A stretch of DNA of 64,000 nt from the NCBI GenBank assembly GCA_050173015.1, contig JBFXLE010000004.1, positions 67,470-131,469 of the forward strand, written 5' to 3'. This DNA comes from Calditrichaceae bacterium. GTDB taxonomy: Bacteria; Calditrichota; Calditrichia; Calditrichales; JBFXGD01. Numbering within the stretch: position 1 is the first letter of the stretch; each line of letters opens with the position of its first letter. The translations under genes and the position numbers were made by a program. The notes beneath the pieces were generated by a model, which did no database searches, had not been told where the DNA came from, and worked only from the letters and a program-made list of their open reading frames with translations. Shown piece after piece: positions 26,400 through 45,363 of this stretch.

Positions 26400-26798
26400 A
26401 TGATTGTTATGAAAGAAGTGAATCAAAATCTTACACCCCTCGAATGGGAGATTATGGATATCATCTGGGAACTTAAAAAAAGCCTGTCCGTACGTGAAGT
26501 TTTGGAAACAGCCTATCCTGACGGTAATAAGGCTTATACCACTGTTCAAACTGTGATGAACAATCTTGAAGCAAAGGGCTTCCTCAAAAAAGAAAAAATT
26601 GGACTTGTAAATTTTTATAAACCGCTCATCTTTCATAAAGATATGCTCAGAAAAGAAACATCTCAGTTTGTGAAACGGGTGTTCGGCGGTTCATTTCCGG
26701 GGCTTGTTAATTATCTGATTGACTCCAAGGCGCTAACAGAAGAGGAAATCAACGACCTGAAAAAACTCATCGCCGAAAAGGGAGAGGGAGAATCGTGA
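26400..26798 (+). CDS. BlaI/MecI/CopY-family transcriptional repressor
   Basis: LTPLEWEIMDIIWELKKSLSVREVLE...YTTVQTVMNNLEAKGFLKKEK is a winged-helix Penicillinase_R pattern. It overlaps the downstream M56 gene. Confidence 0.85.
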   Translation: MIVMKEVNQNLTPLEWEIMDIIWELKKSLSVREVLETAYPDGNKAYTTVQTVMNNLEAKGFLKKEKIGLVNFYKPLIFHKDMLRKETSQFVKRVFGGSFPGLVNYLIDSKALTEEEINDLKKLIAEKGEGES

Positions 26799-28105
26799 TG
26801 GTAAGTCTGCTAAATGATATCAGTCTGCATTGGGCCAATCTATTCTTAGCGATGATAGTTCAGAGTTCTGTCTTTGTTTCCCTGATCCTTTTTTTTCTCC
26901 ATATGATGCGCCATAAAGAAGCATGGTTTTTAAAATCTGTTACCGTTGTCGGTTTAGTTAAATTAGTTGTGCCTCCGTTTCTCATATCTGACCGCGTGAA
27001 TGAAGCGATTATTTCAGGAATGGGTTGGCTTCCAATCATCACCGTTTTTCCGAATGCGAAAGTCGATCCTGTTGAGCAATTATCCTTATCCGGTTTCGTT
27101 TTTCTCTCCTGGCTGGGCATTTGCTTAATTCTGCTAATCGCTGTTTCCATACGTCATTTGGCGTTTCGCTATGGGTTTCGTGATATAATACCGATAGATA
27201 ATCCGTTGAGTCACCCGGATGAGCGCGATTTAAAGATCATGTTTCTGCAATCAAAGAAAGTACACAGTCCTTTTGTAATCGGTTTGTTCAGGCATAAAAT
27301 CATTCTACCGGCAAACTGGTCGCAATGGAATAGTCAGACACAACGCGCCATTATTACTCATGAAATCGGTCACATCAGGCAAGGAGATCGATGGTTGAAT
27401 TTGTTGAAAATATTTGTCCTTAGTATCCATTTTTTCAATCCGCTCGCCTGGATACTAACGCGTAAATTAACCTGTTTCAGCGAAATTTTATGTGATGAGG
27501 TATCATTAAAGTCAAACGGATTTGGGAGAAAAGCATACGCGCGTGTTTTATTGACGATTGCCGAAGAAACCGGAGGGAGGTTAACCGGCGTCTCGGCGCT
27601 AAATTTCTCCAGGACCCATCGTTTACTAAAAACCCGTATTACCTATCAGTTAAGTCAAAAAGAGGAGACAATGATGAAGAACTCAACATGGGCGAACCGG
27701 ATCACTATTCTGGGGCTGTCGCTAATGGTCATTCTGTTTTCCTGGCAATGCAGTAATGATAACAATGCCGCGCCAAGCGAAACCAAACAGCAGATTTCAT
27801 CAGTCGTGACACAATCCGATGCCATGGACTTTTCAAGTGTGGATGTTAAGCCGGAACTGGTTAAGAAGGAAAGACCGGAATATCCTGAAGACGCCAGAAG
27901 AGGAGGCATTGAAGGAACCGTTATTGTCGCGGTCACCATTGATGTTGATGGATCGGTGACAGAGGCCAGTATATTAAAATCGGTACCACTGCTTGATCAG
28001 GCTGCCCTTGATGCCGCCAGGATGGCGCAATTCACACCCGCGGAGCATGACGGGAAAAAAGTAAAAGTGACAATGAAAATTCCGTATCAGTTCAAACTAA
28101 AATAA
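26795..28105 (+). CDS. BlaR1-like M56 peptidase sensor fused to a TonB C-terminal domain
   Basis: HEIGHIRQGD (HExxH) lies in an M56 membrane context. The C-terminus VKPELVKKERPEYPEDARRGGIEGTVIVAVTIDVDGSV...IPYQFKL is a TonB_C fold signature. Confidence 0.85.
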   Translation: MMVSLLNDISLHWANLFLAMIVQSSVFVSLILFFLHMMRHKEAWFLKSVTVVGLVKLVVPPFLISDRVNEAIISGMGWLPIITVFPNAKVDPVEQLSLSGFVFLSWLGICLILLIAVSIRHLAFRYGFRDIIPIDNPLSHPDERDLKIMFLQSKKVHSPFVIGLFRHKIILPANWSQWNSQTQRAIITHEIGHIRQGDRWLNLLKIFVLSIHFFNPLAWILTRKLTCFSEILCDEVSLKSNGFGRKAYARVLLTIAEETGGRLTGVSALNFSRTHRLLKTRITYQLSQKEETMMKNSTWANRITILGLSLMVILFSWQCSNDNNAAPSETKQQISSVVTQSDAMDFSSVDVKPELVKKERPEYPEDARRGGIEGTVIVAVTIDVDGSVTEASILKSVPLLDQAALDAARMAQFTPAEHDGKKVKVTMKIPYQFKLK

Positions 28106-28237: not shown

Positions 28238-30559
28238 TCAGTATTCATCCAAATCAATGACCAGAAAGGCATTTAAATTATCAGTTACAAAAGTTTTTAC
28301 CCATACCGGTAACTCGTGGCCGTCTAAAAGTGGAATATCATTGCGATAGACATCATCCAGCCATTTCCGGCTTTTTTCGGTGATCGCGCGCCACATATTT
28401 GATTGTCTCAAAAAGCGGGTCCGGAGAATCTCGAAAACCAGAACGGTGGAAAGCAGCGTAAATAAATCGACATTCTGCCCTGTTTTGATGTTTTTTGAGA
28501 GTTTTTGAATTGTATTCAAATCGAGTTTAAGTACATGTGCCAGGTCTTCAGTAATCCGGAATCCACCCTCGGATTGCTGAGAAGCGAGCAGTGACATCAA
28601 CACATCAGTTGTGCCGATTTTATTATAGGAAGGGGAAGAACTGAAAAGTTTATTCAATGTGTGAATTTCAGGAATTTGACACATATCAACGCTGCGAGTG
28701 GCTGGTAGATCGTTGATATTCATATTTTCAATAAATCTATCTTTAATTATTTTCATTCGCGCGGTTTTTACATGATCGTGCCAACCGGTGGTAACCATGG
28801 TTGGGACCAGCGTGAGTTCGACTTCGCCAAAAGTTTTTTCGCTTTTCTTCCGTCTCTCTATTCCCAGAAAACTGGTATGTTTCGATAGGATACCGTATTC
28901 CTTTGAAAGTTCGATAATCATGTTGGTTGTTTTGTCCTGCTTCCGTTCTTCCTGTCTGGATCCGGATCTTTGAGCCGATTCCTCCAGATCACGAATTCTT
29001 TCCCTCGCCCATAGCTGCGGCAGCGGCATGTTTTCATGTGAAGTTTCGATCACCTCAAAATGCCATTCTTTCCTTTCCGCTCCGGCGCGGCCGTGTACAA
29101 CTATTCGGGAAGGCAGGGAGGTCATTAATGCTCCGCGGGCGAAAATTGTGGATACTTTATCGCCAAATAAAGTGGGATGAGCCGGCGCCTGTTCAATATC
29201 CTCGCCGTCCCAGGAAATACTTTCTATTTCCAGTTCAGGAGCTATGATCCGGTCAAAGATTCTAAGCACTTTGGGTTCGATCCGTTCTCCGGGATAAACA
29301 AATTCCGCTGCTCCGTTGCCCGCGCGCGCCACGCCTTTGATCAGGTGTTCATTGGGTCCGCTACCGATGCCGATCGAGAAAACTCTCGTATGTGAGCGGT
29401 TGGAAGCCGCGAGATCGATGATTTCCTGTTCATTTCCGACTTCACCGTCGGTTAATAATAATATCGTTCGTCCGTTCTCCGCGGATTCTGAATAGATTTC
29501 CTTCAATGGTTCATAGATTTCAGTACCACCCAGGATGGCCTGGGTTCTTTCCAATTTGTTGAGAGCCAAAGTCAGTTTGTCTTCCGAGTAGTCTTGTGAT
29601 TTGATGAAAAATGAATTAAACGATGACCCAAAACGATACACATTAAATTTGCATGCCTTTGGTAATGCCTTAAGGCAGATCTCCAATGCCTTTTTTGCTT
29701 CAAGAATCGAATCTCCCGACATAGACCCGGAACAGTCCAGCAGAAAAATCACTTCCTTTGATCCGGTTTTAGGGGTGAAATAAATTTGCGGAATCGAAAA
29801 ATCCAGTTGCCAGTAAGAATAATCACCGTCATTGCAGCAATAGGCCGCGCCGGATTCACTCTCCCCTGGATCGATTACAAGGATAAAATCACGATCCATG
29901 TTCACTGAATCGCTGACAAATTCAACAGCTACAAGTTTCTTCCGCAGTTTAATTCTGATAGGATGTGTGATGGATTCCACGGAGGCCAGACCGCCGTCAT
30001 GATAAATGTTAAGTTGCAAGGATAAACCGTAGGGGACTTCCGGCGCGTAGGGTGGATTTACAATGTCATGAATTGGAATCCCCTGATCGTCAGGCATGTC
30101 GCCCGGGATATAACGAGGGGAAATAGTTGTGGGCAGCGTGAAACGATAGTTGTGACCTTCGCTGTCAAGCAGCATTACCAGCTCGATTTCAACAATTACC
30201 TCCATACCGGGATTCAAATTGCCGACAGACAGCGTAAAAATATTCGGCCTCTCCTCATCCAAAAGATAGCCGCCGTCGCCAGCCATTAATGCATCGTCGT
30301 AATTATCGAAAGCCTTGTCACGCTCTTCTATCTTTCCGTCAATCCGCCTTTCCCCAACCCAGACCTGAAAACCGGTAATAGCGCTGCTTTCCGGTAACGG
30401 GAATTTATAAACAGCTTCAATGGCATTTTTTTCTTTATTACGGAATTTTTGCCGGATGATAATCTTTGCCCCGCGACCAAGCAATTCACCATTCACAGTA
30501 ACACCTGTCAAAGGAACGGAATGGTTGTTTGTTGAGAAAAGACCCCAAAAAGCACTCAT
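28238..30559 (-). CDS. Cytoplasmic VIT domain + von Willebrand A domain protein with a long helical C-terminal region
   Basis: VIT-like N-terminus (VPLTGVTVNGELLGRGAKIIIRQKFRN...AVYKFPLPESSAITGFQVWVGERRIDGKIEER). Intact MIDAS (VIFLLDCSGSMSG). C-terminal LLASQQSEGGF repeat-like motif. No signal peptide. Confidence 0.85.
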   Translation of the reverse strand: MSAFWGLFSTNNHSVPLTGVTVNGELLGRGAKIIIRQKFRNKEKNAIEAVYKFPLPESSAITGFQVWVGERRIDGKIEERDKAFDNYDDALMAGDGGYLLDEERPNIFTLSVGNLNPGMEVIVEIELVMLLDSEGHNYRFTLPTTISPRYIPGDMPDDQGIPIHDIVNPPYAPEVPYGLSLQLNIYHDGGLASVESITHPIRIKLRKKLVAVEFVSDSVNMDRDFILVIDPGESESGAAYCCNDGDYSYWQLDFSIPQIYFTPKTGSKEVIFLLDCSGSMSGDSILEAKKALEICLKALPKACKFNVYRFGSSFNSFFIKSQDYSEDKLTLALNKLERTQAILGGTEIYEPLKEIYSESAENGRTILLLTDGEVGNEQEIIDLAASNRSHTRVFSIGIGSGPNEHLIKGVARAGNGAAEFVYPGERIEPKVLRIFDRIIAPELEIESISWDGEDIEQAPAHPTLFGDKVSTIFARGALMTSLPSRIVVHGRAGAERKEWHFEVIETSHENMPLPQLWARERIRDLEESAQRSGSRQEERKQDKTTNMIIELSKEYGILSKHTSFLGIERRKKSEKTFGEVELTLVPTMVTTGWHDHVKTARMKIIKDRFIENMNINDLPATRSVDMCQIPEIHTLNKLFSSSPSYNKIGTTDVLMSLLASQQSEGGFRITEDLAHVLKLDLNTIQKLSKNIKTGQNVDLFTLLSTVLVFEILRTRFLRQSNMWRAITEKSRKWLDDVYRNDIPLLDGHELPVWVKTFVTDNLNAFLVIDLDEY

Positions 30560-30966
30560 TTTTTATCTCCTTTTAAAATCGATTTAGCTATACGAATAAG
30601 CTCGGTAATCCGCCGCCCTTTGTCCTGTTCTACATCGCGTCGGATATGAATCTCGATTCCCGGGATAATGGGATATCTGACCCATATATCCCTGACAGAC
30701 TCCGGTGTGTTTTCCAAATCGGTTTTTGTCAGTTCCTGAATAGCGGCTAATTTGATTCCCTGTTCCTGATTTGCCCGGATTTCTTGTAATTTATGCAGGT
30801 GACTGTCATAATAAAATCCACCGCGCCCTCTTCCGGCCGGCGGCTCAATAAGTCCTTGTTGTATATAGTATCTTATGGTACGTCGTGTGTATCCGGTTAG
30901 CTCAGATAACTGCTCAATGGTATATTTTTTGCTATTCATGGATTCATAATAACAGTAAACTGTCAT
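30556..30966 (-). CDS. MerR-family HTH protein, translationally coupled to the VIT-vWA gene
   Basis: YTIEQLSELTGYTRRTIRYYIQQGLIEPP is a MerR-type HTH. A 4-nt ATGA overlap joins it to the downstream gene. The true start may be the internal ATG at 30939 (MNSKKY...). Confidence 0.8.
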   Translation of the reverse strand: MTVYCYYESMNSKKYTIEQLSELTGYTRRTIRYYIQQGLIEPPAGRGRGGFYYDSHLHKLQEIRANQEQGIKLAAIQELTKTDLENTPESVRDIWVRYPIIPGIEIHIRRDVEQDKGRRITELIRIAKSILKGDKK

Positions 30967-33201: not shown

Positions 33202-33654
33202 ATGAAATTATTAACGACATTTTTAGTCATCTTTTTTGCAGCCCTTTCATTATACGGTCAGGAAGTGCAGGTAAAGGAGAAAGTTAAGACGGAAGCCAAA
33301 GAAAAAGTACAGATCAAAGAGCAGGCAAAAACCGCCGAAAAAGAGCAAGTCCAGGTTAAGAACGAATTGAAAGAACAAGAACAGACTAAAAGCAAAGAAA
33401 TGATTCAGACCAAAACCAAAAAAGAAGAGCAGGTAAAAGAAAAAGTTCAGGAAAAAGCGGAAGAAAAGGCGCAGATCAAAACAAAAGAGCAAACAAAAGA
33501 ACAAACCGGATTTATTGATGAAGACGGCGACGGCATCAATGATAAGTCAAAAAAGGATGAAGGAAGTCAGTTTAAGGAAACCAACCGAAATCATTCCGGT
33601 GAAGGAACCACAAGCGAAGACGCGGCTAAACAGATTCAAAAAGGAAAGAAATAA
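33202..33654 (+). CDS. Secreted low-complexity Lys/Glu/Gln-rich protein with a DxDxDG motif
   Basis: Signal peptide, then degenerate KEKVQ/KEQ repeats, then FIDEDGDGINDK. The antisense F/L-rich ORF is a mirror artefact. Confidence 0.55.
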   Translation: MKLLTTFLVIFFAALSLYGQEVQVKEKVKTEAKEKVQIKEQAKTAEKEQVQVKNELKEQEQTKSKEMIQTKTKKEEQVKEKVQEKAEEKAQIKTKEQTKEQTGFIDEDGDGINDKSKKDEGSQFKETNRNHSGEGTTSEDAAKQIQKGKK

Positions 33655-33696
33655 TCATCACGGAAGTTCTAAATCAATAAAACTGAATATAATGAA

Positions 33697-33719
33697 GGAG
33701 CAGAGATGCTCCTTTTTTT
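33697..33719 (+). terminator. Rho-independent terminator
   Basis: GGAGCA-GAGA-TGCTCC followed by T7. Confidence 0.6.
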
Positions 33720-33916
33720 GTTTTAAATATCTTTATTGAGTCTTCCTGTTCACGCGCCTCAATGTGAATCCATTCTCAAAACTGCCAAATTTTTTCCCGT
33801 CATTCTCAAATTTAAGAGGAAAATCGGTTCATTTAACATCATACTCCCTGATCGTATCATATTTCACAAGGATATGTCATCTAAAATTGTTTTGGTACGA
33901 TTTTTGTAAATCTATA

Positions 33917-33954
33917 TTGAAAAATGTAGATATTTCTACAATTTAAACTATAGG
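33917..33954 (+). promoter_or_regulatory. Candidate promoter with embedded 6-4-6 palindrome (MerR-style operator)
   Basis: TTGAAA (33917-33922), then TGTAGA-TATT-TCTACA (33925-33940), then TTTAAACTATAGG. The palindrome sits between the putative -35 and -10, as in MerR-regulated promoters. Confidence 0.4.
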
Positions 33955-33956
33955 TT

Positions 33957-34418
33957 GTGAGGATGGAAGAGAAAAAAGGCCAAAAAAATGTACTGTATCC
34001 CATAGGGATGGTCGCCAAAATTTTTGATATTTCTGTGGCGACGCTCCGGCTGTATGAAGCGGAGGGATTAATCATTCCACGCAAAAGTAAGGGAGGACAT
34101 CGTCTGTTTACAGAGGTCGATCTTGACCGTATCCACTGTATCAGGGATATGATTGATGAAAAAGGCCTGAATCTGGCGGGAATCCGCATGATGTTGTCGG
34201 CAATTCCCTGTTGGGAGTTAAAACCATGCTCCCTTGAAGAGCGCCAGAGTTGCGACGCTTATTATGAATCCAATTCTCCCTGCTGGATGGTCGAAAATAA
34301 AGCTGAAATTTGTGCTAATGAGGACTGTAGTCAATGTCCCGTATATACGCAATCAAACAATTGTACCAATATAAAAATGATTTTAAAGAAATATTGGAGG
34401 GCGAAAGGTAATGGCTAA
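33957..34418 (+). CDS. MerR-family regulator with a C-terminal Cys-rich (two 'CW' motifs) domain
   Basis: HTH YPIGMVAKIFDISVATLRLYEAEGLIIPRKSKGGHRLF. C-terminus PCWELKPCSLEERQSCDAYYESNSPCWMVENKAEICANEDCSQCPVY holds 8 Cys. The start may be the ATG at 33963. The 3' end overlaps the psrA-like start by 8 nt. Confidence 0.75.
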   Translation: MRMEEKKGQKNVLYPIGMVAKIFDISVATLRLYEAEGLIIPRKSKGGHRLFTEVDLDRIHCIRDMIDEKGLNLAGIRMMLSAIPCWELKPCSLEERQSCDAYYESNSPCWMVENKAEICANEDCSQCPVYTQSNNCTNIKMILKKYWRAKGNG

Positions 34419-36621
34419 GAAATTCGACAGACGCGAATTTATCAAAATTATGGGTGTCGGTACCGGAGGGGTAATGGTCGGTTCATCCATGTTGCAAGCG
34501 CTGGATTTTGGTTCGCTTAATGCCGTCACGCAAGGGGCAATGGACAGAACCCCCACCTACTGCGAGATATGTTTCTGGAAATGCGCCGGATGGGTTTATA
34601 AAAAAGATGATAAACCATGGAAGATCGAAGGTAATCCGGATGATCCAAACAGCAACGGGCGGTTTTGTCCCCGTGGGACAGGCGGTATTGGCGCGTATAA
34701 CGATCCTGATCGTTTAAAAACACCGCTAATCAGGGTTGAAGAACGTGGAAAACAGGTTTTCCGTGAAGCCTCCTGGGAAGAAGCGTTCGACTATATCGCT
34801 GAAAAAATGATTGATATTAAAGAAAATCATGGTCCGGAATGCGTGGCTTTGTTTACGCATGGTTCCGGCGGTGATTATTTTAAAACACTATTGCGGGGAT
34901 ACGGTTCAAACAACATCGCAGCTCCGTCATACGCTCAGTGCCGCGGGCCGCGTGAAGAAGCTTACATGCTTACTTTTGGCGAGGCGGTCGGTTCTCCGGA
35001 AAGAACCGATATCGCTAACAGTAAATGCATCGTTCTGATCGGATCACATCTTGGTGAAAATATGCATAACGGTCAGGTACAGGAGTTCTCTGAAGCGGTG
35101 GCAAAAGGCGCGTCTGTTATCACGGTTGACCCCAGATTTTCGACGGCCGCCAGCAAATCAAAATATTGGCTTCCGATAAAACCCGGAACGGATATGGCCT
35201 TACTTCTTGCCTGGATACATGTCATTATAAATGAAGAATTGTATGATAAAAAGTATGTGGAAAAATATACCTATGGATTTGAACAATTAAAGGCAGCGGT
35301 TAAGGATAAAACCCCGGAGTGGGCATACACGAAAACAACAATTAAACCGAACGTCATCCGGGAAACGGCCAGGGAAATGGCTAAAAACGCGCCTGCTACA
35401 TTAGTGCATCCGGGACGCCATGTTACATGGTACGGCGATGATACTCAGCGTGTCAGGGCAGGAGCAATCCTCAATGCGCTGCTCGGCTCCTGGGGACGCA
35501 GGGGAGGGTTTTATGTTCCAGCGAAAGCTCATCTCGCCAAAGCCAAATTACCTCCGTTTCCGGCAACCAACAAGAGCTGGAAAGACGCGTTCCCCGGGAA
35601 ATTCCCGCTGGCGAGCCTGGCCCTATCTTCGGGAATCTGTGACGCCACGATCCCTTCTCCCCAGCATGATTGTTCATTCAAGGGGTGGATCGTATACGGA
35701 ACAAATCTGCCGCTGACACTTCCGGAACCGAAAAAAACATTGGAAGCGATTCAAAATCTTGAACTACTTGTGGCGATCGATATCATGCCCGCGGAGATCA
35801 CCGGTTGGGCCGATGTTGTGCTTCCTGAATGCACATATTTGGAACGTTACGATGACATAAGAATATCTCCGGGACGCGTTCCGACCATTGCTTTACGCGC
35901 GCCGGCATTCGAGCCTAAGTATAATACAAAACCGGCATACTGGATGGCCAGGGAACTGTCAAAACGATTGGGTCTTCAGCAATATTTTCCGGCTGAAACG
36001 ATGGAAAAACATATTGATCAGAGACTCAAGACAATCGGCAGCAGTCTGAAAGAAATGAAAAAGATTGGCGTTAAGCGGTTTGAAAACGAATATGACCTCT
36101 ATTTTCTTAATGGAGAAGATTATGAGTTCGGCACGCCAACCGGTAAGATCGAATTATACTCAACCACACTAAGCGACGCGGGATTTGATCCAATTCCACA
36201 ATATACCGCCCATGAGGAACCGCCTGCAAATTATTACCGCCTTCTTTACGGACGGGCACCAATGCATACTTTTGGAAGGACAGCAAATAATCCTAACCTG
36301 AATGATCTGATGGATGAGAATGAAGTCTGGATAAATCCTAAAGTCGCCAAAGAATGGGGAATCAAGAACAGGCAATATATTAAATTAGAGAACCAGGATG
36401 GTGTCATATCTAATAAAATTCGCGTAAAAGTGACTGAACGAATTCGTCATGATTCAGTCTATATGGTTCATGGATTCGGTCACACACAGAAACAAATGAC
36501 CCGTTCTTATCAGAAGGGTGCAAATGACACGGGACTGATTAGCAGGGTTAAAGTTGATCCGATTATGGGAGGCACGGGAATGCGTGTTAATTTTGTCACC
36601 TTTAAGAGGGAGGTAGCGTAA
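34411..36621 (+). CDS. Periplasmic Mo-bisPGD oxidoreductase catalytic subunit, PsrA/PhsA-like (polysulfide/thiosulfate-reductase clade; substrate unproven)
   Basis: Tat signal (DRREFIKIMGVG). N-terminal FS0 motif CEICFWKCAGW...x27...CPRG. Its size (736 aa) and its PsrB/PsrC-like partners fit the clade. Confidence 0.85.
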   Translation: MAKKFDRREFIKIMGVGTGGVMVGSSMLQALDFGSLNAVTQGAMDRTPTYCEICFWKCAGWVYKKDDKPWKIEGNPDDPNSNGRFCPRGTGGIGAYNDPDRLKTPLIRVEERGKQVFREASWEEAFDYIAEKMIDIKENHGPECVALFTHGSGGDYFKTLLRGYGSNNIAAPSYAQCRGPREEAYMLTFGEAVGSPERTDIANSKCIVLIGSHLGENMHNGQVQEFSEAVAKGASVITVDPRFSTAASKSKYWLPIKPGTDMALLLAWIHVIINEELYDKKYVEKYTYGFEQLKAAVKDKTPEWAYTKTTIKPNVIRETAREMAKNAPATLVHPGRHVTWYGDDTQRVRAGAILNALLGSWGRRGGFYVPAKAHLAKAKLPPFPATNKSWKDAFPGKFPLASLALSSGICDATIPSPQHDCSFKGWIVYGTNLPLTLPEPKKTLEAIQNLELLVAIDIMPAEITGWADVVLPECTYLERYDDIRISPGRVPTIALRAPAFEPKYNTKPAYWMARELSKRLGLQQYFPAETMEKHIDQRLKTIGSSLKEMKKIGVKRFENEYDLYFLNGEDYEFGTPTGKIELYSTTLSDAGFDPIPQYTAHEEPPANYYRLLYGRAPMHTFGRTANNPNLNDLMDENEVWINPKVAKEWGIKNRQYIKLENQDGVISNKIRVKVTERIRHDSVYMVHGFGHTQKQMTRSYQKGANDTGLISRVKVDPIMGGTGMRVNFVTFKREVA

Positions 36622-37158
36622 ATGTCTCGATATGCAATGGCTATAGATACAAAACGATGTGTGGGTTGCGCCGATTGCGTTGTTGCCTGCCAGACGGAAA
36701 ATAATGTTCCGATAGGATACTGTAAAGACTGGATTGTTGAGGAAATGACCGGTGTCTATCCGGAATTACAGCTTGAAATCCGCTCAGAACGATGCAATCA
36801 CTGTGAAGACGCGCCCTGTGTGCGTTCCTGCCCGACCAGCGCCAGTCATTATGAAGAAGGTGGCATTGTTCTGGTGACTCATGAGGAATGTATCGGTTGT
36901 AAGGCGTGTATTGCTTCCTGCCCTTACGATGCAAGATTTGTTCATCCTGAAGGCTATGTGGATAAGTGTACATTTTGTATTCACAGAGTTAAAGACGGAA
37001 AAGATCCGGCATGTGTCAGCGTCTGTCCGACACACGCGATGATTTTTGGAGATCTGGATGATCCGAATAGTGAGATCTCAAAAACAATCCGTACGAGAAA
37101 AAATAAGACACTCATCCCGGAAGCAGGTACAAAACCTCATGTTTATTATCTGCTGTAA
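36622..37158 (+). CDS. 4x[4Fe-4S] ferredoxin subunit (PsrB/NrfC-like)
   Basis: Four Cys clusters: CVGCADCVVAC, CNHCEDAPCVRSC, CIGCKACIASC and CTFC...CVSVCP. Confidence 0.9.
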   Translation: MSRYAMAIDTKRCVGCADCVVACQTENNVPIGYCKDWIVEEMTGVYPELQLEIRSERCNHCEDAPCVRSCPTSASHYEEGGIVLVTHEECIGCKACIASCPYDARFVHPEGYVDKCTFCIHRVKDGKDPACVSVCPTHAMIFGDLDDPNSEISKTIRTRKNKTLIPEAGTKPHVYYLL

Positions 37159-37208
37159 AATATGAACCGGTTTTTAGGATTTGTAAATAAAATTTCTGGA
37201 GAATCAAA

Positions 37209-38162
37209 ATGAAAGAAATAACCATCACATCAGGGAGAATGAATCCGGGTATTGATCCGGTGCTTCATGCATGGGGTTGGGAAATCCCTGTTTACCTGTT
37301 TCTTGGAGGGCTTGTTGCCGGTATTCTGTTCTTCTCAACTCTATATTATATCCGCGGCCGACAGAATGACTACCCGACAGCGGTGAAAATCGCGCCGTTA
37401 TTTGTCCCCGTGTTTTTATCAATCGGATTGCTGGCGTTGTTTCTCGATTTGTCGCATAAACTCTATTTTTGGCGACTGTACACGACAGTCCGGTGGGAGT
37501 CACCGATGTCCTGGGGCGCGTGGACGCTTCTTTTAATCTTTCCGCTCTCCATACTCTGGATCGCAACATGGATCGAGGATGTATTTCCTAAATGGAACTG
37601 GAAATATAAAATATTAAAAATCAGCGCGGATTTACTAAAAAATTACCGCAAACTTCTGGCCTGGTCGGTTATGATCCTCGCGCTTATTCTCGGTATGTAC
37701 ACAGGTATTCTGCTTTCCGCCTTTAATGCGCGTCCATTCTGGAACACATCGATACTCGGGCCCTTATTTCTGGTTTCCGGTTTATCCACAGGAACGGCGT
37801 TCATCATTTTGCTGTCAAAATCTCATGAAGAGAAGAAAAGGTTCAGTCAGATTGATTTAACCCTGATTGGTGCGGAGCTGTTCTTAATCGTTCATATGTT
37901 TATGGGATTTCTGGCCAGCACCGAGGTCCATATTCAGGCCGCGGAACTTTTCCTCGGCGGACCGTACACCGCTGTATTCTGGACATTTATCGTCGGATTA
38001 GGGCTGGTGATTCCGCTTATTGTAGAGCTTCTGGAACTTCGCGGCGTGAAGATTCCTTTGCAAATTCCGGCATTGCTTGTGCTTATGGGCGGATTTATTC
38101 TGAGATTCATTGTTGTTGACGCCGGGCAGACTTCGAGATGGCTGTATAAGTTTTTGGAGTAG
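37209..38162 (+). CDS. NrfD/PsrC-family integral-membrane quinol-interacting subunit
   Basis: Eight TM segments with an NrfD-like N-terminus (WGWEIPVYLFLGGLVAG). Confidence 0.85.
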   Translation: MKEITITSGRMNPGIDPVLHAWGWEIPVYLFLGGLVAGILFFSTLYYIRGRQNDYPTAVKIAPLFVPVFLSIGLLALFLDLSHKLYFWRLYTTVRWESPMSWGAWTLLLIFPLSILWIATWIEDVFPKWNWKYKILKISADLLKNYRKLLAWSVMILALILGMYTGILLSAFNARPFWNTSILGPLFLVSGLSTGTAFIILLSKSHEEKKRFSQIDLTLIGAELFLIVHMFMGFLASTEVHIQAAELFLGGPYTAVFWTFIVGLGLVIPLIVELLELRGVKIPLQIPALLVLMGGFILRFIVVDAGQTSRWLYKFLE

Positions 38163-38248
38163 GGAGGAAGAAGAAGTAGGAAGTAAGAAGTAGGAAGTAG
38201 GAAGGTTAAGAAAAAAGAAAAAAGAAAAAAGAAAAAAGATTAAGAACG

Positions 38249-38341
38249 GTCTGAACCTGGATTAAAATGATTAAATGATTTGGATGATTAAGAAATTGGA
38301 AATCAGAGTTGTCATTTAATCAGTCGAATCAGAGTTCAGAC
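38249..38341 (+). other. 93-nt imperfect hairpin module, copy 1
   Basis: GTCTGAAC...GTTCAGAC closing stem; GATT/AATC; inner 10-bp stem GATTAAATGA/TCATTTAATC. Confidence 0.6.
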
Positions 38342-38420
38342 AAAGAAGTAAGAAGTAGGAAGTTGGAAGTGGGAAGTGGGAAGGTTAAGAAAAAAGAAAA
38401 AAGAAAAAAGATTAAGAACG

Positions 38421-38513
38421 GTCTGAACCGGGATTAAAATGATTAAATGATTTGGATGATTAAGAAATTGGAAATCAGAGTTGTCATTTAATCAGTCGAA
38501 TCAGAGTTCAGAC
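38421..38513 (+). other. 93-nt imperfect hairpin module, copy 2
   Basis: Same arms as copy 1, with a single substitution (CCGGG versus CCTGG) in the internal loop. Confidence 0.6.
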
Positions 38514-38592
38514 AAAGAAGTAAGAAGTAGGAAGTAAGAAGTAGGAAGTGGGAAGGTTAAGAAAAAAGAAAAATGAAAAAAGATTAAGAACG

Positions 38593-38685
38593 GTCTGAAC
38601 CGGGATTAAAATGATTAAATGATTTGGATGATTAAGAAATTGGAAATCAGAGTTGTCATTTAATCAGTCGAATCAGAGTTCAGAC
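38593..38685 (+). other. 93-nt imperfect hairpin module, copy 3
   Basis: Identical to copy 2 by eye. Confidence 0.6.
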
Positions 38686-38810
38686 AAAGAAGTAAGAAGT
38701 AGGAAGGTTTAAAAAAAATATTGGGTGAGGAAGTCCGTGCCCAAAGAAAAAAGTGGATCTTAAAATAAATATAAAGAATAATTCCGGGTTTTAACGAGAG
38801 GAATCAAAAG

Positions 38811-39314
38811 ATGAAAGAACAAAAGTATTGGTCACCCTATTTATCAGGAATTGGCCTGGGGATTACACTCTTGCTGGCTTTTGTGATTATGGGGCGGGGA
38901 CTTGGCGCTTCCGGTGCCATGATGAGGTTTGAAGTCTGGTTTCTAAACCTGTTCGCAGCCGATCATGTGGCGGCAAATCCTTATTTTAGCAAATATGCAA
39001 ATAATCCTTTGTCAAACTGGCTGATTTTTGAAGTAATTGGTGTCATTATCGGCGGATTTTTATCAGGGGCTCTCGCGGGACGCCTGAAATTTAAAATCGG
39101 CAAAGGTCCGAATATTTCAAACAAAGGGCGTTTAGCTCTTGCTTTTGGTGGAGGCGCCTTAATGGGATTCGCCGCGCGTTTGGCGCGAGGATGTACCAGT
39201 GGTCTTGCGCTTACCGGTGGGGCGACGCTCGCTCTTGGAGGCTGGGTTTTTATGCTGATGATCTTCGCGGGTGGATACATGACCGCATATTTCGTCCGGA
39301 GACAGTGGTTATAA
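38811..39314 (+). CDS. YeeE/YedE-family sulfur-compound transporter, half-size subunit 1
   Basis: GRGLGASGA and ARLARGCTSGLALTGG motifs (DUF395 'sulphur transport' signature). Confidence 0.8.
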   Translation: MKEQKYWSPYLSGIGLGITLLLAFVIMGRGLGASGAMMRFEVWFLNLFAADHVAANPYFSKYANNPLSNWLIFEVIGVIIGGFLSGALAGRLKFKIGKGPNISNKGRLALAFGGGALMGFAARLARGCTSGLALTGGATLALGGWVFMLMIFAGGYMTAYFVRRQWL

Positions 39315-39375: not shown

Positions 39376-39981
39376 ATGATGGAGAAAACTATGGCACCCT
39401 TTTTTAAAATGGGATTTTTTGGAGAGCAGACAAGTTTTATAATCGCTCTGATCCTTGGTATCAGTTTTGGTTTCTGGCTGGAAAGAGCCGGTTTTGGCGA
39501 CAGCCGTAAATTAGCCCTTCAATTTTATTTTGAAGATATGACGGTCCTGAAAGTCATGTTTACGGCCATACTGGTGGCGATGGTAGGAATGATGTATATG
39601 ACCTTGTTTGGCTATCTCGATATTGAAAAAGTATATATCAATCCGACATATATCTGGGCTCAGACAATCGGCGGACTCGTTTTGGGAGTCGGTTTCGCGA
39701 TCGGCGGATATTGCCCGGGTACCTCAGTTGTGGGCGCGGCGACTGGAAGAATTGACGGTTTTGTGTATATTTTGGGAGCTCTGTTCGGGATGTTCGTGTT
39801 TGGGGAGATGTTCCCGTTCATCGAAGAGTTCTATTATGCCGGTTTCATGGGTAACGCGAAGCTGACCGACTTTTTTGGTCTTTCCACCGGTGTGGTGGGA
39901 CTTCTCGTTATTCTGATGGCCGTGGGTATGTTTTACGGCGGTGAATGGTTGGAGAGAAAGTTCAGGAAGGAGACTGTATAA
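39376..39981 (+). CDS. YeeE/YedE-family sulfur-compound transporter, half-size subunit 2
   Basis: GFAIGGYCPGTSVVGAATG motif; 4-5 TM segments. Its stop overlaps the next ATG (TAATG). Confidence 0.8.
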   Translation: MMEKTMAPFFKMGFFGEQTSFIIALILGISFGFWLERAGFGDSRKLALQFYFEDMTVLKVMFTAILVAMVGMMYMTLFGYLDIEKVYINPTYIWAQTIGGLVLGVGFAIGGYCPGTSVVGAATGRIDGFVYILGALFGMFVFGEMFPFIEEFYYAGFMGNAKLTDFFGLSTGVVGLLVILMAVGMFYGGEWLERKFRKETV

Positions 39982-40607
39982 TGACATTTTCAAGCAAAAC
40001 TCTCGGTTTTGGTTTGTTGGTTTTATTGGGTCTGATTCTGGCATTCTCACCCGTGGATAAGATGAGCCGGAAGCCGGTTACAGCCGAACAACTGATCAAA
40101 GAAATCACGACAAAAAAAGATTTTGTTCAGCCGGAAGACCTGGCGCACTGGATTATTGATAAAGATCCGGGTTTTCAGGTGATTGATGTCCGGTCAAAGG
40201 ATGACTATGCAAAATATCATATTCCCGGAAGTGTCAGCATTCCGCTTGAGAAATTGGTCGATTCAGAGAGCAGGGACTATATCTATGCGAATAAAATGTT
40301 GATTCTTACTTCAAACGGAAACACAAATGCATCCCAGGCCTGGATTTTTATGAAGCAATTGGGATATAAGGAAGTTTATATTCTTTCGGGCGGAATGAAT
40401 TACTGGGTAGATGTTTTTAGCAATCCTAATCCTCCGGAAGGTAGCTACACGGACGATGAACTCTTCACTTACCAGTTCCGAAAAGCGGCTGGGCCGGTGA
40501 TGATGGGAACGGCGGTCGCTACTTCATCCGAAGTAACAATTGAAGCGCCGGCTCCTGTAAAAAGAGCAATCAGGATGCCAAAGAAAAAGCGTGATGAGGG
40601 ATGTTAA
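39981..40607 (+). CDS. Exported rhodanese-homology-domain protein lacking the catalytic Cys
   Basis: I chose the ATG at 39981 (MTFSSKTLGFGLLVLLGLILA signal/anchor) over the track's 39945. Rhodanese fold FQVIDVRSKDDYAKYHIPGSVSIP...LILTSNGNTNASQAW...GYKEVYILSGGMNYW. Ser occupies the active-site Cys position. Confidence 0.75.
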   Translation: MTFSSKTLGFGLLVLLGLILAFSPVDKMSRKPVTAEQLIKEITTKKDFVQPEDLAHWIIDKDPGFQVIDVRSKDDYAKYHIPGSVSIPLEKLVDSESRDYIYANKMLILTSNGNTNASQAWIFMKQLGYKEVYILSGGMNYWVDVFSNPNPPEGSYTDDELFTYQFRKAAGPVMMGTAVATSSEVTIEAPAPVKRAIRMPKKKRDEGC

Positions 40608-40615
40608 GATTACCT

Positions 40616-40651
40616 GAAGCAGGGCAGATAATTTCTGCTCTGCTTTTTTTT
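40616..40651 (+). terminator. Rho-independent terminator at the convergence point
   Basis: GAAGCAGGGCAGA-TAAT-TTCTGCTCTGCTT (one G:T pair) followed by T8. It abuts the stop of the minus-strand cytochrome gene. Confidence 0.7.
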
Positions 40652-42290
40652 ATTTGTTGAATAGTTCTTCTATGCCGTCGTTTTTAAATGCCCTTGTCCG
40701 CCACTTTTTGTAATCCGCCGATTTTTCCAACAATCTTCGTTGTTCCTGACTGTTTAATAAACGGCTTCCCGGTATAACAGGTTCGGTCGGCAGAGTTATT
40801 GAATTTGAAACGGAGTTCGAAAAAGCATTGCGAATTCCCAATCCGGCGGCTTTGGTATTACCGTGACAGCTTTCACAGACGCGCCCACTCTTCCCGGTTG
40901 TGTGGGGTGTGTACGCATCCCATGACCAACCGGGGCGCCCGTCAGATCTTTTCGGGATGACCGAATCAAGCCATAAATTTTCACTGGAATCCACATACGT
41001 TATAAAATACTGATGTAGCGGTCGGATAATTGAGTATTTTCCATTGGAATTTACTCCCAGCACGGGATCTTCCCATCGTCTGAACGACCAGCCTTTATAC
41101 CAGATTCCGGTTGATTCCACACCTGTTAAACGATTGGGCGAATGAGCGGTTGGCCGTACTGTCGGATCAATCAGAAACATATCGGTCAATAAATTGATAA
41201 CGGATTTATCTCCCTGCCAAATCAAATTTTCCCATATTTCATAATGTTTGGTTTCATCCAGAAAAAGATGAAGACCGTAATCCTGGTATGACCATTGCGC
41301 GTGACACGAACCGCAGGTTAAATCCGCGTGAAAATCCATATGTGATATGATGTCTTTATTAAATTTTATTACATCTTTTTTATTTGGAGCTTGTTTAAAT
41401 CCGCCGTGGCAATTTTCGCACCTGATATCCGAAGGCTGCTCTCCAAATTTTCTATTTCGGAAATCACCCATGACACTCTGTGAAGTGTGACAGTCAAGAC
41501 ATGTCATACCCGCATTCTGATGCACATCGGTAGCGAGACGGTGCTGATAGGCGCCGAAGAAGGGTTGGCTTCCGTAAGGCGTCGCGTATTCCTGATGATA
41601 GTCATGTTCAAAATAACCATAATAGTCACCACCGATATGATTATTTGAATGACAAGTCAGACAGGTTTTATCCACAACTTTTTTCTGCATTTTATGACCA
41701 TGCAGGGGCTCACCATTTTTCTGATCGAAGGGAATATGACAAGATGCGCATCCGCCGGCTCTTATTTTACCAGGCTGCTCATCCTTCCCTGAAGCGTTAA
41801 AGTGACAGGAAAGACATTTTTTTGCCAGCAGATTGTCCACGAGCTCCGGAGGGGTCGTACCTGTGGCGCGTCCTGTTCTGCCCAGCAGTTTCCATTGATC
41901 GGGATCAGGATTCGTAACAAGCGTTTTGTCTTTTCCCCAAAGATATCTGGTCTGTGAGATCATTCCCCCGGCAGAGTAGTGAAGGCTGTTTTTAAATTGA
42001 GTGATTTCTTTTTGATGACAGCTGAGACATTTTTCACGCCACCATTTTTCTAATGAAGGATTTTGTATCACACGCGAATGACCTGCCTGATCGGGTTGAA
42101 AATCAGCGTTTGGTGAGGAATGACAGTCCGCGCAGGTAATATTGCAGCTGGATTCAATACCCTTATGACAATCAACGCAGTTCTCGCCCGCGTATCCGGC
42201 GGACACGACCATGAGCAATAAAACCTGAAGGCTTATTTGTCGGATTAACCTCACAGAATAACAACTCTTAATCATCAATTTTTTCTGCAT
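40650..42290 (-). CDS. Decahaem c-type cytochrome (periplasmic)
   Basis: Signal peptide and 10 CxxCH motifs (CVDCH, CADCH, CLSCH x2, CASCH, CLTCH, CLDCH, CENCH, CGSCH, CESCH). Overlaps the upstream gene by 16 nt. Confidence 0.9.
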   Translation of the reverse strand: MQKKLMIKSCYSVRLIRQISLQVLLLMVVSAGYAGENCVDCHKGIESSCNITCADCHSSPNADFQPDQAGHSRVIQNPSLEKWWREKCLSCHQKEITQFKNSLHYSAGGMISQTRYLWGKDKTLVTNPDPDQWKLLGRTGRATGTTPPELVDNLLAKKCLSCHFNASGKDEQPGKIRAGGCASCHIPFDQKNGEPLHGHKMQKKVVDKTCLTCHSNNHIGGDYYGYFEHDYHQEYATPYGSQPFFGAYQHRLATDVHQNAGMTCLDCHTSQSVMGDFRNRKFGEQPSDIRCENCHGGFKQAPNKKDVIKFNKDIISHMDFHADLTCGSCHAQWSYQDYGLHLFLDETKHYEIWENLIWQGDKSVINLLTDMFLIDPTVRPTAHSPNRLTGVESTGIWYKGWSFRRWEDPVLGVNSNGKYSIIRPLHQYFITYVDSSENLWLDSVIPKRSDGRPGWSWDAYTPHTTGKSGRVCESCHGNTKAAGLGIRNAFSNSVSNSITLPTEPVIPGSRLLNSQEQRRLLEKSADYKKWRTRAFKNDGIEELFNK

Positions 42291-44071: not shown

Positions 44072-44961
44072 CCATCCCCTCGAAAATATGTACCAATGAT
44101 GCTTTCAATCATATAAATAATAATCATAAGGAGTATAAAATACAGCACGGACTTTTCAAATTTCTTTACTACCGGTAACAGAAAGAAGGCGATGAGTATC
44201 AGCGAGGGGAAAACAACACCAGCGATCGAAACCGGCAGCCAGGCAAGAAGTTCCTGCAATCCGATGAAGTACCAGGGTCCTTTTACAACTTCAATAACCG
44301 CGTCCGGTCTGAATCCCAGTTTTGCGGGAAACAAAATTGCAAAAAGTGAGATCAATATGATTGTATATGCAAACGCGTACCGCTCCGATTTTAATCTGTG
44401 AATATGAATATAGGTAAGAATCACGGATAAGATTGAAAAAGTGGCCGCGTGATGCGTATAGATTACCGCCAGCGGTGTTGTTGAACGTTCCGACTGCAGG
44501 AGAAAGTTTGACAGAGTATTCCCAAGCGCGGGAAGCGTTTGCAGGATTCCGTCAAAGATATGCACCGCGGAAAAACTTTCCTTGCTGCCGATACTTAAAA
44601 ATCCGCTGAAGACGGTAAGAATGGAGATTACGAACAGAATGATAAGCAATCCCCATGATTTCATGGTATAGCTTTGATAAGTTTTTTTTAAAAGATATTC
44701 AATGATATGGATGACTGTTGAAATTAGAAATATATCACCCGCGTAAGAATGGAAACCGTGTAAAAAAGCACCCATATAGCCGGCGCTGATGAATTGACTG
44801 ACACTCCGGAATGGATCGTCGCCGGAAATATAGAAGGGTATGAGCATTAATCCTGAAATCAGGGCTAATACAAGGCTGCTGAGTGAAATTTCCCCCCAGC
44901 CCGGCATCCACAATGTTTTTTCAAAAAAGACTGATCGGTTCAAGATTTTATCCATTTTCAA
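44050..44961 (-). CDS. Cytochrome b of a Rieske/cyt b complex
   Basis: FHSYAGDIFLISTVIH gives H-x13-H and HAATFSILSVILTYIH gives H-x14-H, the bis-His haem ligand spacing of helices B and D. A Qo-loop-like GPWYF sits where PEWYF occurs in canonical cyt b. Confidence 0.75.
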   Translation of the reverse strand: MKMDKILNRSVFFEKTLWMPGWGEISLSSLVLALISGLMLIPFYISGDDPFRSVSQFISAGYMGAFLHGFHSYAGDIFLISTVIHIIEYLLKKTYQSYTMKSWGLLIILFVISILTVFSGFLSIGSKESFSAVHIFDGILQTLPALGNTLSNFLLQSERSTTPLAVIYTHHAATFSILSVILTYIHIHRLKSERYAFAYTIILISLFAILFPAKLGFRPDAVIEVVKGPWYFIGLQELLAWLPVSIAGVVFPSLILIAFFLLPVVKKFEKSVLYFILLMIIIYMIESIIGTYFRGDGWQFLNR

Positions 44962-44967
44962 AAAAGA

Positions 44968-45363
44968 TCAAATAATTATCTCAATATCATTCGTTTCGTT
45001 GAGTTTATAATCCAGATCGGTCAGATTTTTTTTTGCCGGTCCGGATAAATAATTCCCTTCATTGTCAAATTTGCTGCCGTGACAGGGGCAGATGAACATT
45101 TTGCTGTTTTCGTTAAAATTTACGGTGCATCCCAAATGAGTACATTTTTTTGAAATGATGCGCAATTTTTGATGGTCAGTTCTGACAAAGAAAAATTCGG
45201 TTTCCTTCAGGTCTTTCAATTTTAATTTTAGAACATGTTTCTTTTGGGAAATACGATTTAAAAAACCGGAAAATGGAAAATACAAAAGACCTGCAGCCAG
45301 AAATAAAATTCTCCGGCCTAATGTATGTAAAAATGTGCGGCGTTTGTAAGTGTTTTCCGACAT
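44968..45363 (-). CDS. Rieske [2Fe-2S] protein
   Basis: CTHLGC...CPCHGS cluster-binding boxes. N-terminal RRTFL Tat-like motif plus a TM anchor. Confidence 0.85.
   Translation of the reverse strand: MSENTYKRRTFLHTLGRRILFLAAGLLYFPFSGFLNRISQKKHVLKLKLKDLKETEFFFVRTDHQKLRIISKKCTHLGCTVNFNENSKMFICPCHGSKFDNEGNYLSGPAKKNLTDLDYKLNETNDIEIII

Follow-up and report, generated by a model that had tools for sequence, protein, structure and literature searches.

The window analysed here, a 64,000-nucleotide stretch of contig JBFXLE010000004.1 from a Calditrichaceae bacterium, carries the gene of a small MerR-family regulator, here called REG, that heads an operon for a PsrABC-type respiratory enzyme. REG joins a GlnR-like winged helix-turn-helix (HTH) to a Cys-rich tail, classed below as a divergent form of the two-CW domain, and nearly all members of its family head sulfur-cycle operons. 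It is likely that REG is an autoregulated, operon-specific regulator of such operons with a two-CW sensor domain. The full model, in which an autoregulated repressor with a two-CW sensor responds to a sulfur species, has in our judgement an even chance of being right. Domain make-up, homology, conserved synteny, and promoter and operator motifs conserved in both sequence and position are direct observations. Coordinates of all features are collected in Table 1.

A GlnR-like regulator at the head of its operon

The open reading frame of REG has two in-frame starts, GTG at 33957 and ATG at 33963, and ends at 34418. Homologue N-termini favour the ATG, which would give a protein of 151 aa. The identical sequence is held at NCBI as MGD9487240.1, 'MerR family transcriptional regulator' of a Calditrichaceae bacterium, a metagenome-assembled genome (MAG) entry with no further annotation. 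The gene is preceded by an intergenic region (33716-33962).

Pfam places the HTH in the MerR family (PF13411, E 1.1e-17, 64 bits against a cut-off of 21.6; PF00376, 46.8 bits). Within this family, the closest sequences in the PDB are those of GlnR (7tec_A, E 9.5e-13; 4r4e_B, E 1.4e-12), with CueR, CadR, TipA and MerR following at E 1e-5 to 1e-6, five to seven orders of magnitude behind. An AlphaFold2 (AF2) model of the full protein has a mean confidence (predicted local distance difference test, pLDDT) of 82, with 90-97 in the HTH and 79-87 in the tail. Foldseek matches this model to MtaN, CueR, GlnR and CadR over 60-70 residues at a root-mean-square deviation (rmsd) of 1.3-1.8, and GlnR has the top target-normalised template-modelling score (0.73-0.80). 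In the model, a helix at residues 71-79 is followed by P82 and short helices only, without a long coiled coil after residue 80, and the alignments to CueR, CadR and SoxR end at about residue 80 or worsen to an rmsd above 5. The long antiparallel dimerisation helix of classical activator MerRs (MerR, CueR, SoxR, BmrR) is thus absent from REG in both the AF2 and the Foldseek results. REG belongs to the short GlnR/TnrA/HspR-like branch and is not a MerR/CueR/SoxR-type activator. The characterised members of this branch are repressors.

The stop codon of REG (TAA, 34416-34418) lies inside the psrA-like gene, whose ATG is at 34411, as a preliminary description of this DNA had reported. Comparable overlaps of 8-11 nt are found in three orthologous Calditrichota loci (L081, L082 and L084), and Ignavibacteria loci have an overlap of 1-4 nt or a gap of a few nucleotides. 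This conserved arrangement agrees with the suggestion, made in the same description, that regulator and molybdoenzyme are probably co-transcribed. Its further remark that such coupling is atypical for MerR regulators was overstated: GlnR, the nearest relative of known structure, likewise opens its own operon, and the window has a second MerR-family gene (30556-30966, minus strand) that overlaps the gene downstream of it by 4 nt. That second gene (MerR_1, E 2.7e-17) has no Cys-rich tail. Its partner encodes a 773-aa protein with VIT and von Willebrand A domains (28238-30559, minus strand), and the two make up another apparently co-transcribed pair with the MerR gene first.

The tail as a divergent two-CW domain

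Eight Cys and two Cys-Trp motifs had been counted in the tail by the preliminary description, and translation gives the same set: C83 (followed by W84), C89, C97, C107 (followed by W108), C117, C122, C125 and C135. The accompanying comparison with a 'two-CW domain' annotated in some anaerobe sensor proteins proved right in substance, as reciprocal profile matches and a profile-profile alignment now indicate. A tail profile run against 1.84 billion representative proteins retrieved 542 of them at E<=1e-3, most being MerR fusions of about 150 aa. The module is also doubled in tandem at the C-termini of two chemoreceptors, P0098 from a Thermodesulfobacteriota MAG (E 3e-16) and P0110 (E 2e-14), which in turn score 93 and 91 bits on the NCBIfam model NF045718, 'two_CW_domain' (cut-off 35). 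Other carriers include an HD-GYP-type protein with the module at its C-terminus (P0186), proteins of about 115 aa in which it follows a single transmembrane helix, a 238-aa protein in which it is duplicated, and stand-alone proteins of 58-67 aa. These architectures needed the exhaustive search, and a word-indexed homologue search with the same profile gave MerR-linked fragments only. Supporting the relationship, hhalign aligned the REG-tail alignment with NF045718-passing sequences at 99.1% probability (E 9.3e-19).

Curated models do not recover this link from REG itself. The isolated tail (about 70 residues) has no Pfam or NCBIfam match even at E<=10, and neither it nor full REG matches NF045718 at that threshold, although HMMER filters may hide very weak matches. 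Both groups have the skeleton CW-x4-C-x7-C-PAY-x7-CW ... C-x2-C-xVY in common, but the loop between the fifth and sixth Cys has 4-5 residues in REG against about 14 in NF045718. By these profile comparisons, the REG tail is best classed as a divergent two-CW domain, a shorter-looped version that the curated model misses. The literature searched holds no published function for the domain. The sensing module proposed in the preliminary description is nevertheless reasonable as a sensory role, because the two-CW domain occurs in signalling architectures: it recurs in chemoreceptor, HD-GYP, membrane-anchored and stand-alone forms.

Conservation of the Cys pattern is strong. Full-length homologues number 70, at 38-70% identity. 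In an alignment of 22 sequences (homologues 38-65% identical), P82, C83, W84, C89, C97, C107, W108, C122, C125 and Y128 do not vary, at least 90% of sequences keep C117 and C59, and C135 is missing from the most distant members. Across 34 sequences from more than eight phyla, seven tail Cys and both Trp show little or no variation. Scanning one genome per species yielded 589 HTH relatives, and 43 of the best 80 have the full-length architecture (loci L001-L043). All 43 keep the family skeleton CW-x4-C-x7-C-x9-CW-x8-10-C-x4-5-C-x2-C-x-V-Y, and they span Calditrichota, Marinimicrobia, Lentisphaeria, KSB1, Bacteroidota, Ignavibacteria, Kapaibacteria, Planctomycetota, Rokubacteria, Gemmatimonadales and one proteobacterium. 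The pattern therefore holds in orthologous loci, as do the half-sites described below; the preliminary description had made its reading depend on such conservation. It had also named a match of the tail to a characterised non-sensory fold as an outcome that would speak against a sensor. Foldseek with the full REG model against the PDB aligned the HTH only and gave no characterised fold for the tail.

Two further observations concern the structure of this region. AF2 is confident on the tail only when the HTH is present. A ninth Cys, C59 (34137-34139, motif RIxCIR), lies inside the HTH, and two of the most distant homologues lack it; both also lack the eighth tail Cys. C59 might join the two-CW domain to complete an eight-Cys site.

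Operon context across the family

The link to sulfur-compound metabolism is the strongest functional clue. It was assessed in 52 REG copies, one in the window and the rest in 47 loci, four of which carry extra paralogues, with downstream genes classed by tblastn and by Pfam and NCBIfam models. Directly upstream of sulfur-related or associated respiratory or transport gene sets, and on the same strand, lie 45 of these copies. The comparison of MerR-two-CW genes beside molybdoenzyme operons that the preliminary description had proposed turns up 15 copies ahead of Psr/Phs sets, in the order PsrABC-YeeE-YeeE-rhodanese. A further 11 copies precede type III SQR-DUF1641-DsrC/TusE-DsrE2 (SQR 660 bits, cut-off 525), and five precede a cytochrome of the octaheme tetrathionate-reductase (Otr) family (585 bits, cut-off 375) with cytochrome b and YeeE-YeeE/rhodanese. 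Smaller groups are followed by a multihaem cytochrome and a rhodanese (seven copies), by DsrM/DsrK-like proteins or DsrC (four) and by a FadL-type outer-membrane transporter (three). Downstream genes of the other seven are unassigned or cut off by the contig end. Neither a chaperone gene nor glnA adjoins any of the 52 copies.

This pattern extends to paralogues within a genome. For example, Caldithrix abyssi has two in tandem operons, REG1-sqr-DUF1641-dsrC-dsrE2 and REG2-psrA..., and in a rough neighbour-joining tree REGs cluster by operon type, both within and across phyla. The REG2-linked cluster, Cabys_1269-1267, has been annotated as Psr/Phs, yet C. abyssi shows no sulfur respiration in the laboratory despite its psr genes (PMC5317091).

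In three Ignavibacteria loci (L008 3615-7553, L009 3643-7582 and L012 73-2264), an operon of Otr-like octaheme cytochrome, cytochrome b and YeeE-YeeE/rhodanese lies directly upstream of REG-psr. These operons have neither a REG nor a promoter-plus-operator site of their own, and the same operon has its own REG in other genomes.

Promoter and predicted operators

Judged by its sequence, the conserved REG promoter is a sigma-54-type -24/-12 element. Sigma-54 promoters carry GG at -24 and GC at -12 at a fixed spacing (TGGCAC-N5-TTGCW). The window element aligns with both C. abyssi REG promoters (TGGCAC-ATTAC-TTGCT and TGGCAC-ACATA-TTGCT) and with those of L082, L084 and L001b, in the conserved form TGGYAY-N5-TTGY; L002 has TGGCAC-N5-TAGC and L003 CGGCAT-N5-TCGC. 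The motif TGG[CT]A-N6-TTG stands upstream of 26 of 51 REG genes, against 0.015 expected per region when the loci themselves serve as background, and its carriers are Calditrichota, Ignavibacteria, KSB1 and some Bacteroidota. A subset of Marinimicrobia has TTGnnn-17-TAATTT promoters instead, and Planctomycetota have TTGACC-17-TATACC. From spacing only, transcription in the window is predicted to start near 33919. Reading TTGGCA as a sigma-70 -35 box was considered and rejected; it is possible in Calditrichota (spacers of 14-16 nt) and fails in Ignavibacteria, where the -10 would fall in the variable operator spacer.

Downstream of the -12 lie four half-sites that alternate in orientation and recur every 12 nt: A, TCTATA (33911-16); B, TGTAGA (33925-30); C, TCTACA (33935-40); and D, TATAGG (33949-54). 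A and B make up predicted operator O1, C and D predicted operator O2, and the two together form a 48-nt imperfect palindrome (33909-33956). Between them lies the palindrome TGTAGATATTTCTACA to which the preliminary description had drawn attention; it is exact, lies where that description placed it, and occurs once in the window. A perfect 6+6 palindrome is by itself not rare in 64 kb of AT-rich DNA. Its form TGTAGA-N4-TCTACA is kept in the C. abyssi orthologue (L081, TGTAGAAAATTCTACA) and is degenerate in L082, and its register matches that of CTGTA-N10-TACAG, which precedes homologues in KSB1 and Marinimicrobia. O1-type palindromes are perfect in L081b and L007 and near-perfect in L084 and L001b, in each case 4-6 nt past the -12, and an O2 equivalent is present in L082.

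Across the family, palindromes start 0-6 nt after the -12, or right after the -10 in the Marinimicrobia TTGnnn-17-TAATTT promoters. Operator sequence varies with REG clade, being TCTACA-N8-TGTAGA in Calditrichota and CTGTA-N10-TACAG in KSB1 and Marinimicrobia; the Ignavibacteria palindrome, GTTGATA-N8-TATCAAC, overlaps the -12. In 1.2 Mb of loci, promoter-plus-palindrome sites occur only before REG genes, and no such site away from them points to a regulon in trans. Further matches to the operators in the window are weak and at chance level. Because the predicted operators come after the -12 or -10 and extend over the predicted start site and leader, the geometry is best read as that of a repressor occluding the melting region, the same at sigma-54- and sigma-70-type promoters, and not of a spacer-twisting activator.

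A leader hairpin was tried as the function of the palindrome and rejected: the B-C hairpin is no stabler than shuffled sequences (z = -1.04), and its arms are kept in sequence, without compensatory change. No Rfam family, whether RNA element or riboswitch, matches 33500-38900, a range that includes the leader and the psrC-yeeE gap.

Some additional observations bear on sigma-54 control in these genomes. A direct repeat, CATTCTCAAA, lies at 33771-33780 and 33801-33810, 30 nt apart and about 85-120 nt ahead of the -24 element. All seven Calditrichota REG promoters (window, L081, L081b, L082, L084, L001 and L007) are preceded by a related 9-mer, TTCTYAAAT / ATTTRAGAA (at most one mismatch); only 1 of 100 mononucleotide shuffles also reached 7/7. 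The repeat could be an upstream activating sequence for a sigma-54 activator, or AT-rich noise. In L013, a Melioribacter MAG, an enhancer-binding protein with the GAFTGA motif starts at about 16265 (plus strand), some 8 kb downstream of the REG-Otr operon, with no link to REG established; it shows that sigma-54 machinery exists in its class.

A model of regulation and its alternatives

In the full model, REG would be the first gene of a reg-psrABC-yeeE(a,b)-rhodanese operon transcribed from the sigma-54-type promoter at 33893-33907. REG dimers would occupy the two tandem operators (33911-33954), which start 4 nt past the -12 and cover the predicted start and the leader as far as the ribosome-binding site, and bound REG would repress by blocking open-complex formation or promoter escape. 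The two-CW domain, whose seven conserved Cys probably bind a metal or Fe-S centre, would receive the signal. Since nearly every family member stands at the head of a sulfur-cycle operon, the likeliest signal would be a reduced or sulfane sulfur species in the cytoplasm (polysulfide, persulfide or thiosulfate-derived). By reacting with the thiolates or the cluster, this species would lower the affinity for DNA and derepress the operon. Translational coupling would tie the regulator to enzyme output and provide negative feedback, and an unlinked enhancer-binding ATPase would presumably also be needed at the sigma-54 promoter. What we infer in this model is that REG binds the operators, whether it represses or activates, which cofactor it carries and which signal it senses.

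Several observations weigh against this model. The window promoter fits the sigma-54 consensus in its GG and its spacing, but its -12 reads GT (TTGT, not TTGC), and a weak sigma-70 reading of the Calditrichota promoters, as TTGGYA-15-TAYAYT, is possible. No GAFTGA enhancer-binding protein is encoded in the window, nor within 8 kb of REG in 46 of 47 loci. AF2 predicts the tail alone poorly (pLDDT 56), so that neither a fold nor Cys or cofactor geometry can be derived from it. The occurrence of two-CW on chemoreceptors and HD-GYP proteins would fit a general redox, O2 or metal sensor equally well. Finally, in three Planctomycetota loci a palindrome-like sequence lies within the 17-bp sigma-70 spacer, nearer to classical MerR geometry, and the REG family may therefore not act alike everywhere.

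The main rival keeps the protein and its operators and changes the signal. The two-CW domain would be a general sensor of redox state, O2 or nitric oxide with an Fe-S cluster, following the logic of SoxR, FNR, NsrR or WhiB, and would limit oxygen-sensitive sulfur respiration to reducing conditions. The seven to eight conserved Cys, which include a C-x4-C-x2-C-P stretch, suit such a cluster, all of the linked enzymes are anaerobic respiratory complexes, and the domain also sits on chemoreceptors (one of them from Thermodesulfobacteriota) and an HD-GYP phosphodiesterase, typical readers of general environmental cues. The linked operons, however, serve sulfur functions almost exclusively (DsrC, DsrE2, rhodanese, YeeE, SQR, Otr, Psr) and not a broad anaerobic set, and REG paralogues within one genome each serve one sulfur operon, which would be unexpected of a global redox switch. 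We regard this reading as unlikely, but as one to be taken seriously. A sensor of thiophilic metals, metalloids or selenium (Mo/W, As(III), Cu(I), Zn or selenide), with the Psr-like enzyme and YedE-like transporters handling selenium or arsenic, would suit a family as rich in metal sensors as MerR. The YeeE/YedE halves weakly match selenium-related YedE models (50 and 30 bits, cut-offs 350 and 200), and PsrA has a weak match to ArrA (147 bits). PsrA scores far higher on PhsA (495 bits), however, and the other linked operons encode sulfur enzymes (type III SQR, DsrC, DsrE2, DsrMK-like proteins, octaheme tetrathionate reductase). REG also has none of the metal-site motifs of CueR, ZntR, MerR or SoxR, whose NCBIfam models match the HTH only; the SoxR model TIGR01950, for instance, gives 27.6 bits against a cut-off of 116.9, and CX2CXCX5C is absent. 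A metal or selenium signal is accordingly judged improbable.

The two other rivals concern the mode of action and the identity of the regulator. The preliminary description saw a classical MerR activator, bound to the palindrome between a TTGAAA -35 and an A+T-rich -10 with an over-long spacer, which would distort the DNA when a ligand binds the Cys-rich tail. REG does have a MerR-family winged HTH, TTGAAA does lie at 33917-33922, 2 nt upstream of the palindrome, A/T-rich sequence does follow it, and Planctomycetota homologues have their palindrome-like sequence in the TTGACC-17-TATACC spacer. This promoter did not survive comparison: neither TTGAAA nor the proposed -10 is conserved in orthologous promoters, where TGGYAY-N5-TTGY is, a sigma-70 scan does not call it, and such a -10 would leave a leader of only about 6-10 nt. 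A classical activator has its operator centred in a 19-20 bp sigma-70 spacer, whereas here no part of the conserved promoter element extends beyond the start of the palindromes, which follow the -12 or -10 at sigma-54-type and sigma-70-type family promoters alike. Together with the missing dimerisation helix and the closeness to GlnR, this makes a spacer-twisting activator very improbable. An HspR-type heat-shock repressor that stands beside psr by chance is hardly credible. HspR is the top NCBIfam match of the HTH (NF047375) and several homologues are labelled 'MerR family ... heat shock protein HspR' by JGI, but its 58 bits fall short of the cut-off of 105, chaperone neighbours are absent from all 52 copies, and the C-terminus is a different domain. 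The predicted operators are also unlike the operator of HspR, the HAIR repeat CTTGAGT-N7-ACTCAAG.

A wider generalisation of the sulfur-sensing model is put forward tentatively, and we consider it doubtful. The two-CW domain would constitute a novel sensor class that responds to sulfane sulfur, polysulfide or sulfide, probably by means of a metal or Fe-S centre. REG would be a dedicated switch for sulfur respiration and trafficking (Psr/Phs, type III SQR-DsrC-DsrE2, Otr and DsrMK-like systems) across Calditrichota, Ignavibacteria, Bacteroidota, KSB1, Marinimicrobia, Lentisphaerota, Planctomycetota and Gemmatimonadota, acting by occlusion of sigma-54 start sites. The same module would serve sulfur-species taxis and cyclic di-GMP control in sulfate- and sulfur-reducers.

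Downstream operon and neighbouring genes

The domains that Pfam finds in the three genes after REG give the make-up of a Psr/Phs operon, with an A subunit carrying a twin-arginine motif, a four-cluster B subunit and an NrfD-type C subunit (Table 1). The PhsA model, which is the top NCBIfam match of the psrA-like product, is matched below its equivalog cut-off of 694 bits.

Table 1. Features of the REG locus, with positions in the window
Feature	Position	Strand	Details
Terminator-like hairpin	33694..33715	+	Closes upstream gene; 5' limit of REG control region
Sigma-54-type -24/-12 element TGGTAC-N5-TTGT (GATTT spacer)	33893..33907	+	GG at 33894-95
Predicted operator O1, TCTATA-N8-TGTAGA (half-sites A+B)	33911..33930		Exact to TCTAYA-N8-TRTAGA; spans predicted start site
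Palindrome TGTAGA-TATT-TCTACA (half-sites B-C)	33925..33940		Exact; equals TGTA-N8-TACA; O1/O2 junction
Predicted operator O2, TCTACA-N8-TATAGG (half-sites C+D)	33935..33954		One mismatch to TCTAYA-N8-TRTAGA; reaches ribosome-binding region
REG, MerR/GlnR-like regulator with C-terminal two-CW domain	33963..34418	+	Translation, 151 aa
Winged helix-turn-helix, residues 12-80	33996..34202	+	Pfam MerR_1
Two-CW Cys-rich domain, residues 82-135	34206..34367	+	PCW-x4-C-x7-C-x9-CW-x8-C-x4-C-x2-C-PVY...C
REG stop / psrA-like start overlap ATGGCTAA	34411..34418	+	8 nt
PsrA/PhsA-like molybdopterin catalytic subunit, 736 aa	34411..36621	+	Pfam Molybdopterin, Molydop_binding, Molybdop_Fe4S4; twin-arginine motif DRREFIK
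PsrB-like four-cluster ferredoxin subunit	36622..37158	+	Pfam Fer4_11
PsrC/NrfD-like membrane quinol subunit	37209..38162	+	Pfam NrfD, E 2.4e-46
YeeE/YedE-type sulfur-transport half-protein (a)	38811..39314	+	Pfam Sulf_transp; syntenic in 13-15 loci
YeeE/YedE-type sulfur-transport half-protein (b)	39376..39981	+	Pfam Sulf_transp; syntenic
Rhodanese-domain protein, end of conserved cassette	39945..40607	+	Pfam Rhodanese, E 6.9e-17; syntenic

Three other observations were made in and around the operon. The gap between psrC and yeeE (38171-38706) holds a 172-nt unit repeated 3.1 times in tandem at 95% identity, with purine-rich heptad sub-repeats (AGGAAGT, AAGAAAA). The unit has no other copy in the window and no Rfam match, and the same gap measures 35-180 nt in orthologous loci. 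Converging on the psr operon from the minus strand (40650-45363) are genes for a Rieske protein, cytochrome b and a pair of multihaem c-type cytochromes (598 and 546 aa). Cytochromes related to these adjoin the REG-psr cassette in Ignavibacteriales (L008 and L009), and the set may be a linked quinol-oxidising electron-transfer module. At 26400-28105 (plus strand), a BlaI-type repressor gene overlaps a gene whose product joins a BlaR1-like M56 peptidase to a TonB C-terminal domain, an unusual fusion of sensor and transducer.

Significance

The MerR HTH, the two-CW model, the Psr operon and the sigma-54 promoter are each known; the literature searched appears to contain no description of their combination or of the link to sulfur operons across the family. 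REG makes a promising candidate for a sulfur or redox sensor not yet described. To our knowledge, almost nothing is known of how SQR and the dissimilatory reduction of polysulfide, thiosulfate and tetrathionate are regulated beyond a few Proteobacteria and Firmicutes, and nothing at all in phyla of the Fibrobacteres-Chlorobi-Bacteroidetes group. These phyla are dominant in many anoxic sediments and oxygen-minimum zones. One small regulator family that marks these operons offers a genomic handle on sulfur-cycle gene sets in uncultured lineages, as well as a first concrete functional context for the uncharacterised two-CW domain. If true, a GlnR-like repressor on the melting region of a -24/-12 promoter would be an unusual regulatory arrangement. 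The hypothesis can be tested in cultured Caldithrix abyssi, Melioribacter roseus and Ignavibacterium album. It may also help to explain why C. abyssi has psr genes without laboratory sulfur respiration (PMC5317091), if the operon stays repressed or lacks its activator.

Comparison with known systems

The literature searched yielded nothing on MerR regulators with polysulfide reductase, MerR regulators with sulfane sulfur, or HspR with sigma-54. Among regulators of known function, HspR, like REG in the proposed model, is a MerR-family repressor that binds inverted repeats at or close to promoters and shares a transcript with its target operon; it differs in operator, C-terminus and regulon. SoxR likewise joins a MerR-family HTH to a C-terminal Cys cluster, in its case a redox-active [2Fe-2S] sensor. 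Unlike REG, it has a long dimerisation helix and the motif CX2CXCX5C, and activates from a 19-bp sigma-70 spacer.

The known regulators of sulfur metabolism are of other kinds. CstR, SqrR/BigR and FisR respond to sulfane sulfur through reactive Cys and control operons for SQR, rhodanese and sulfur transfer. FisR activates sqr-pdo with sigma-54, showing that sulfide-oxidation genes can be sigma-54-dependent. These proteins (CsoR-like, ArsR and NtrC-type, respectively) are unrelated to REG, with no homology detected, and have two or three Cys against its seven-Cys module. Reviews of persulfide- and polysulfide-sensing regulators name no MerR-type member.

The closest parallel is with GlnR and TnrA, which like REG are short and carry their signal in a C-terminal segment instead of a coiled coil. 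GlnR represses its own operon through two adjacent operators over the promoter, and its 17-bp box, TGTNA-N7-TNACA, is similar to the 16-bp TGTA-N8-TACA of the window, which is one base pair shorter. Calditrichota REG loci, unlike the GlnR box, mostly conserve the everted pair TCTACA-N8-TGTAGA. The glutamine-synthetase-binding tail of GlnR is replaced in REG by a Cys-rich two-CW domain of 55-70 residues, and where GlnR and TnrA govern nitrogen assimilation, REG is associated with a -24/-12 promoter and sulfur-respiration targets.

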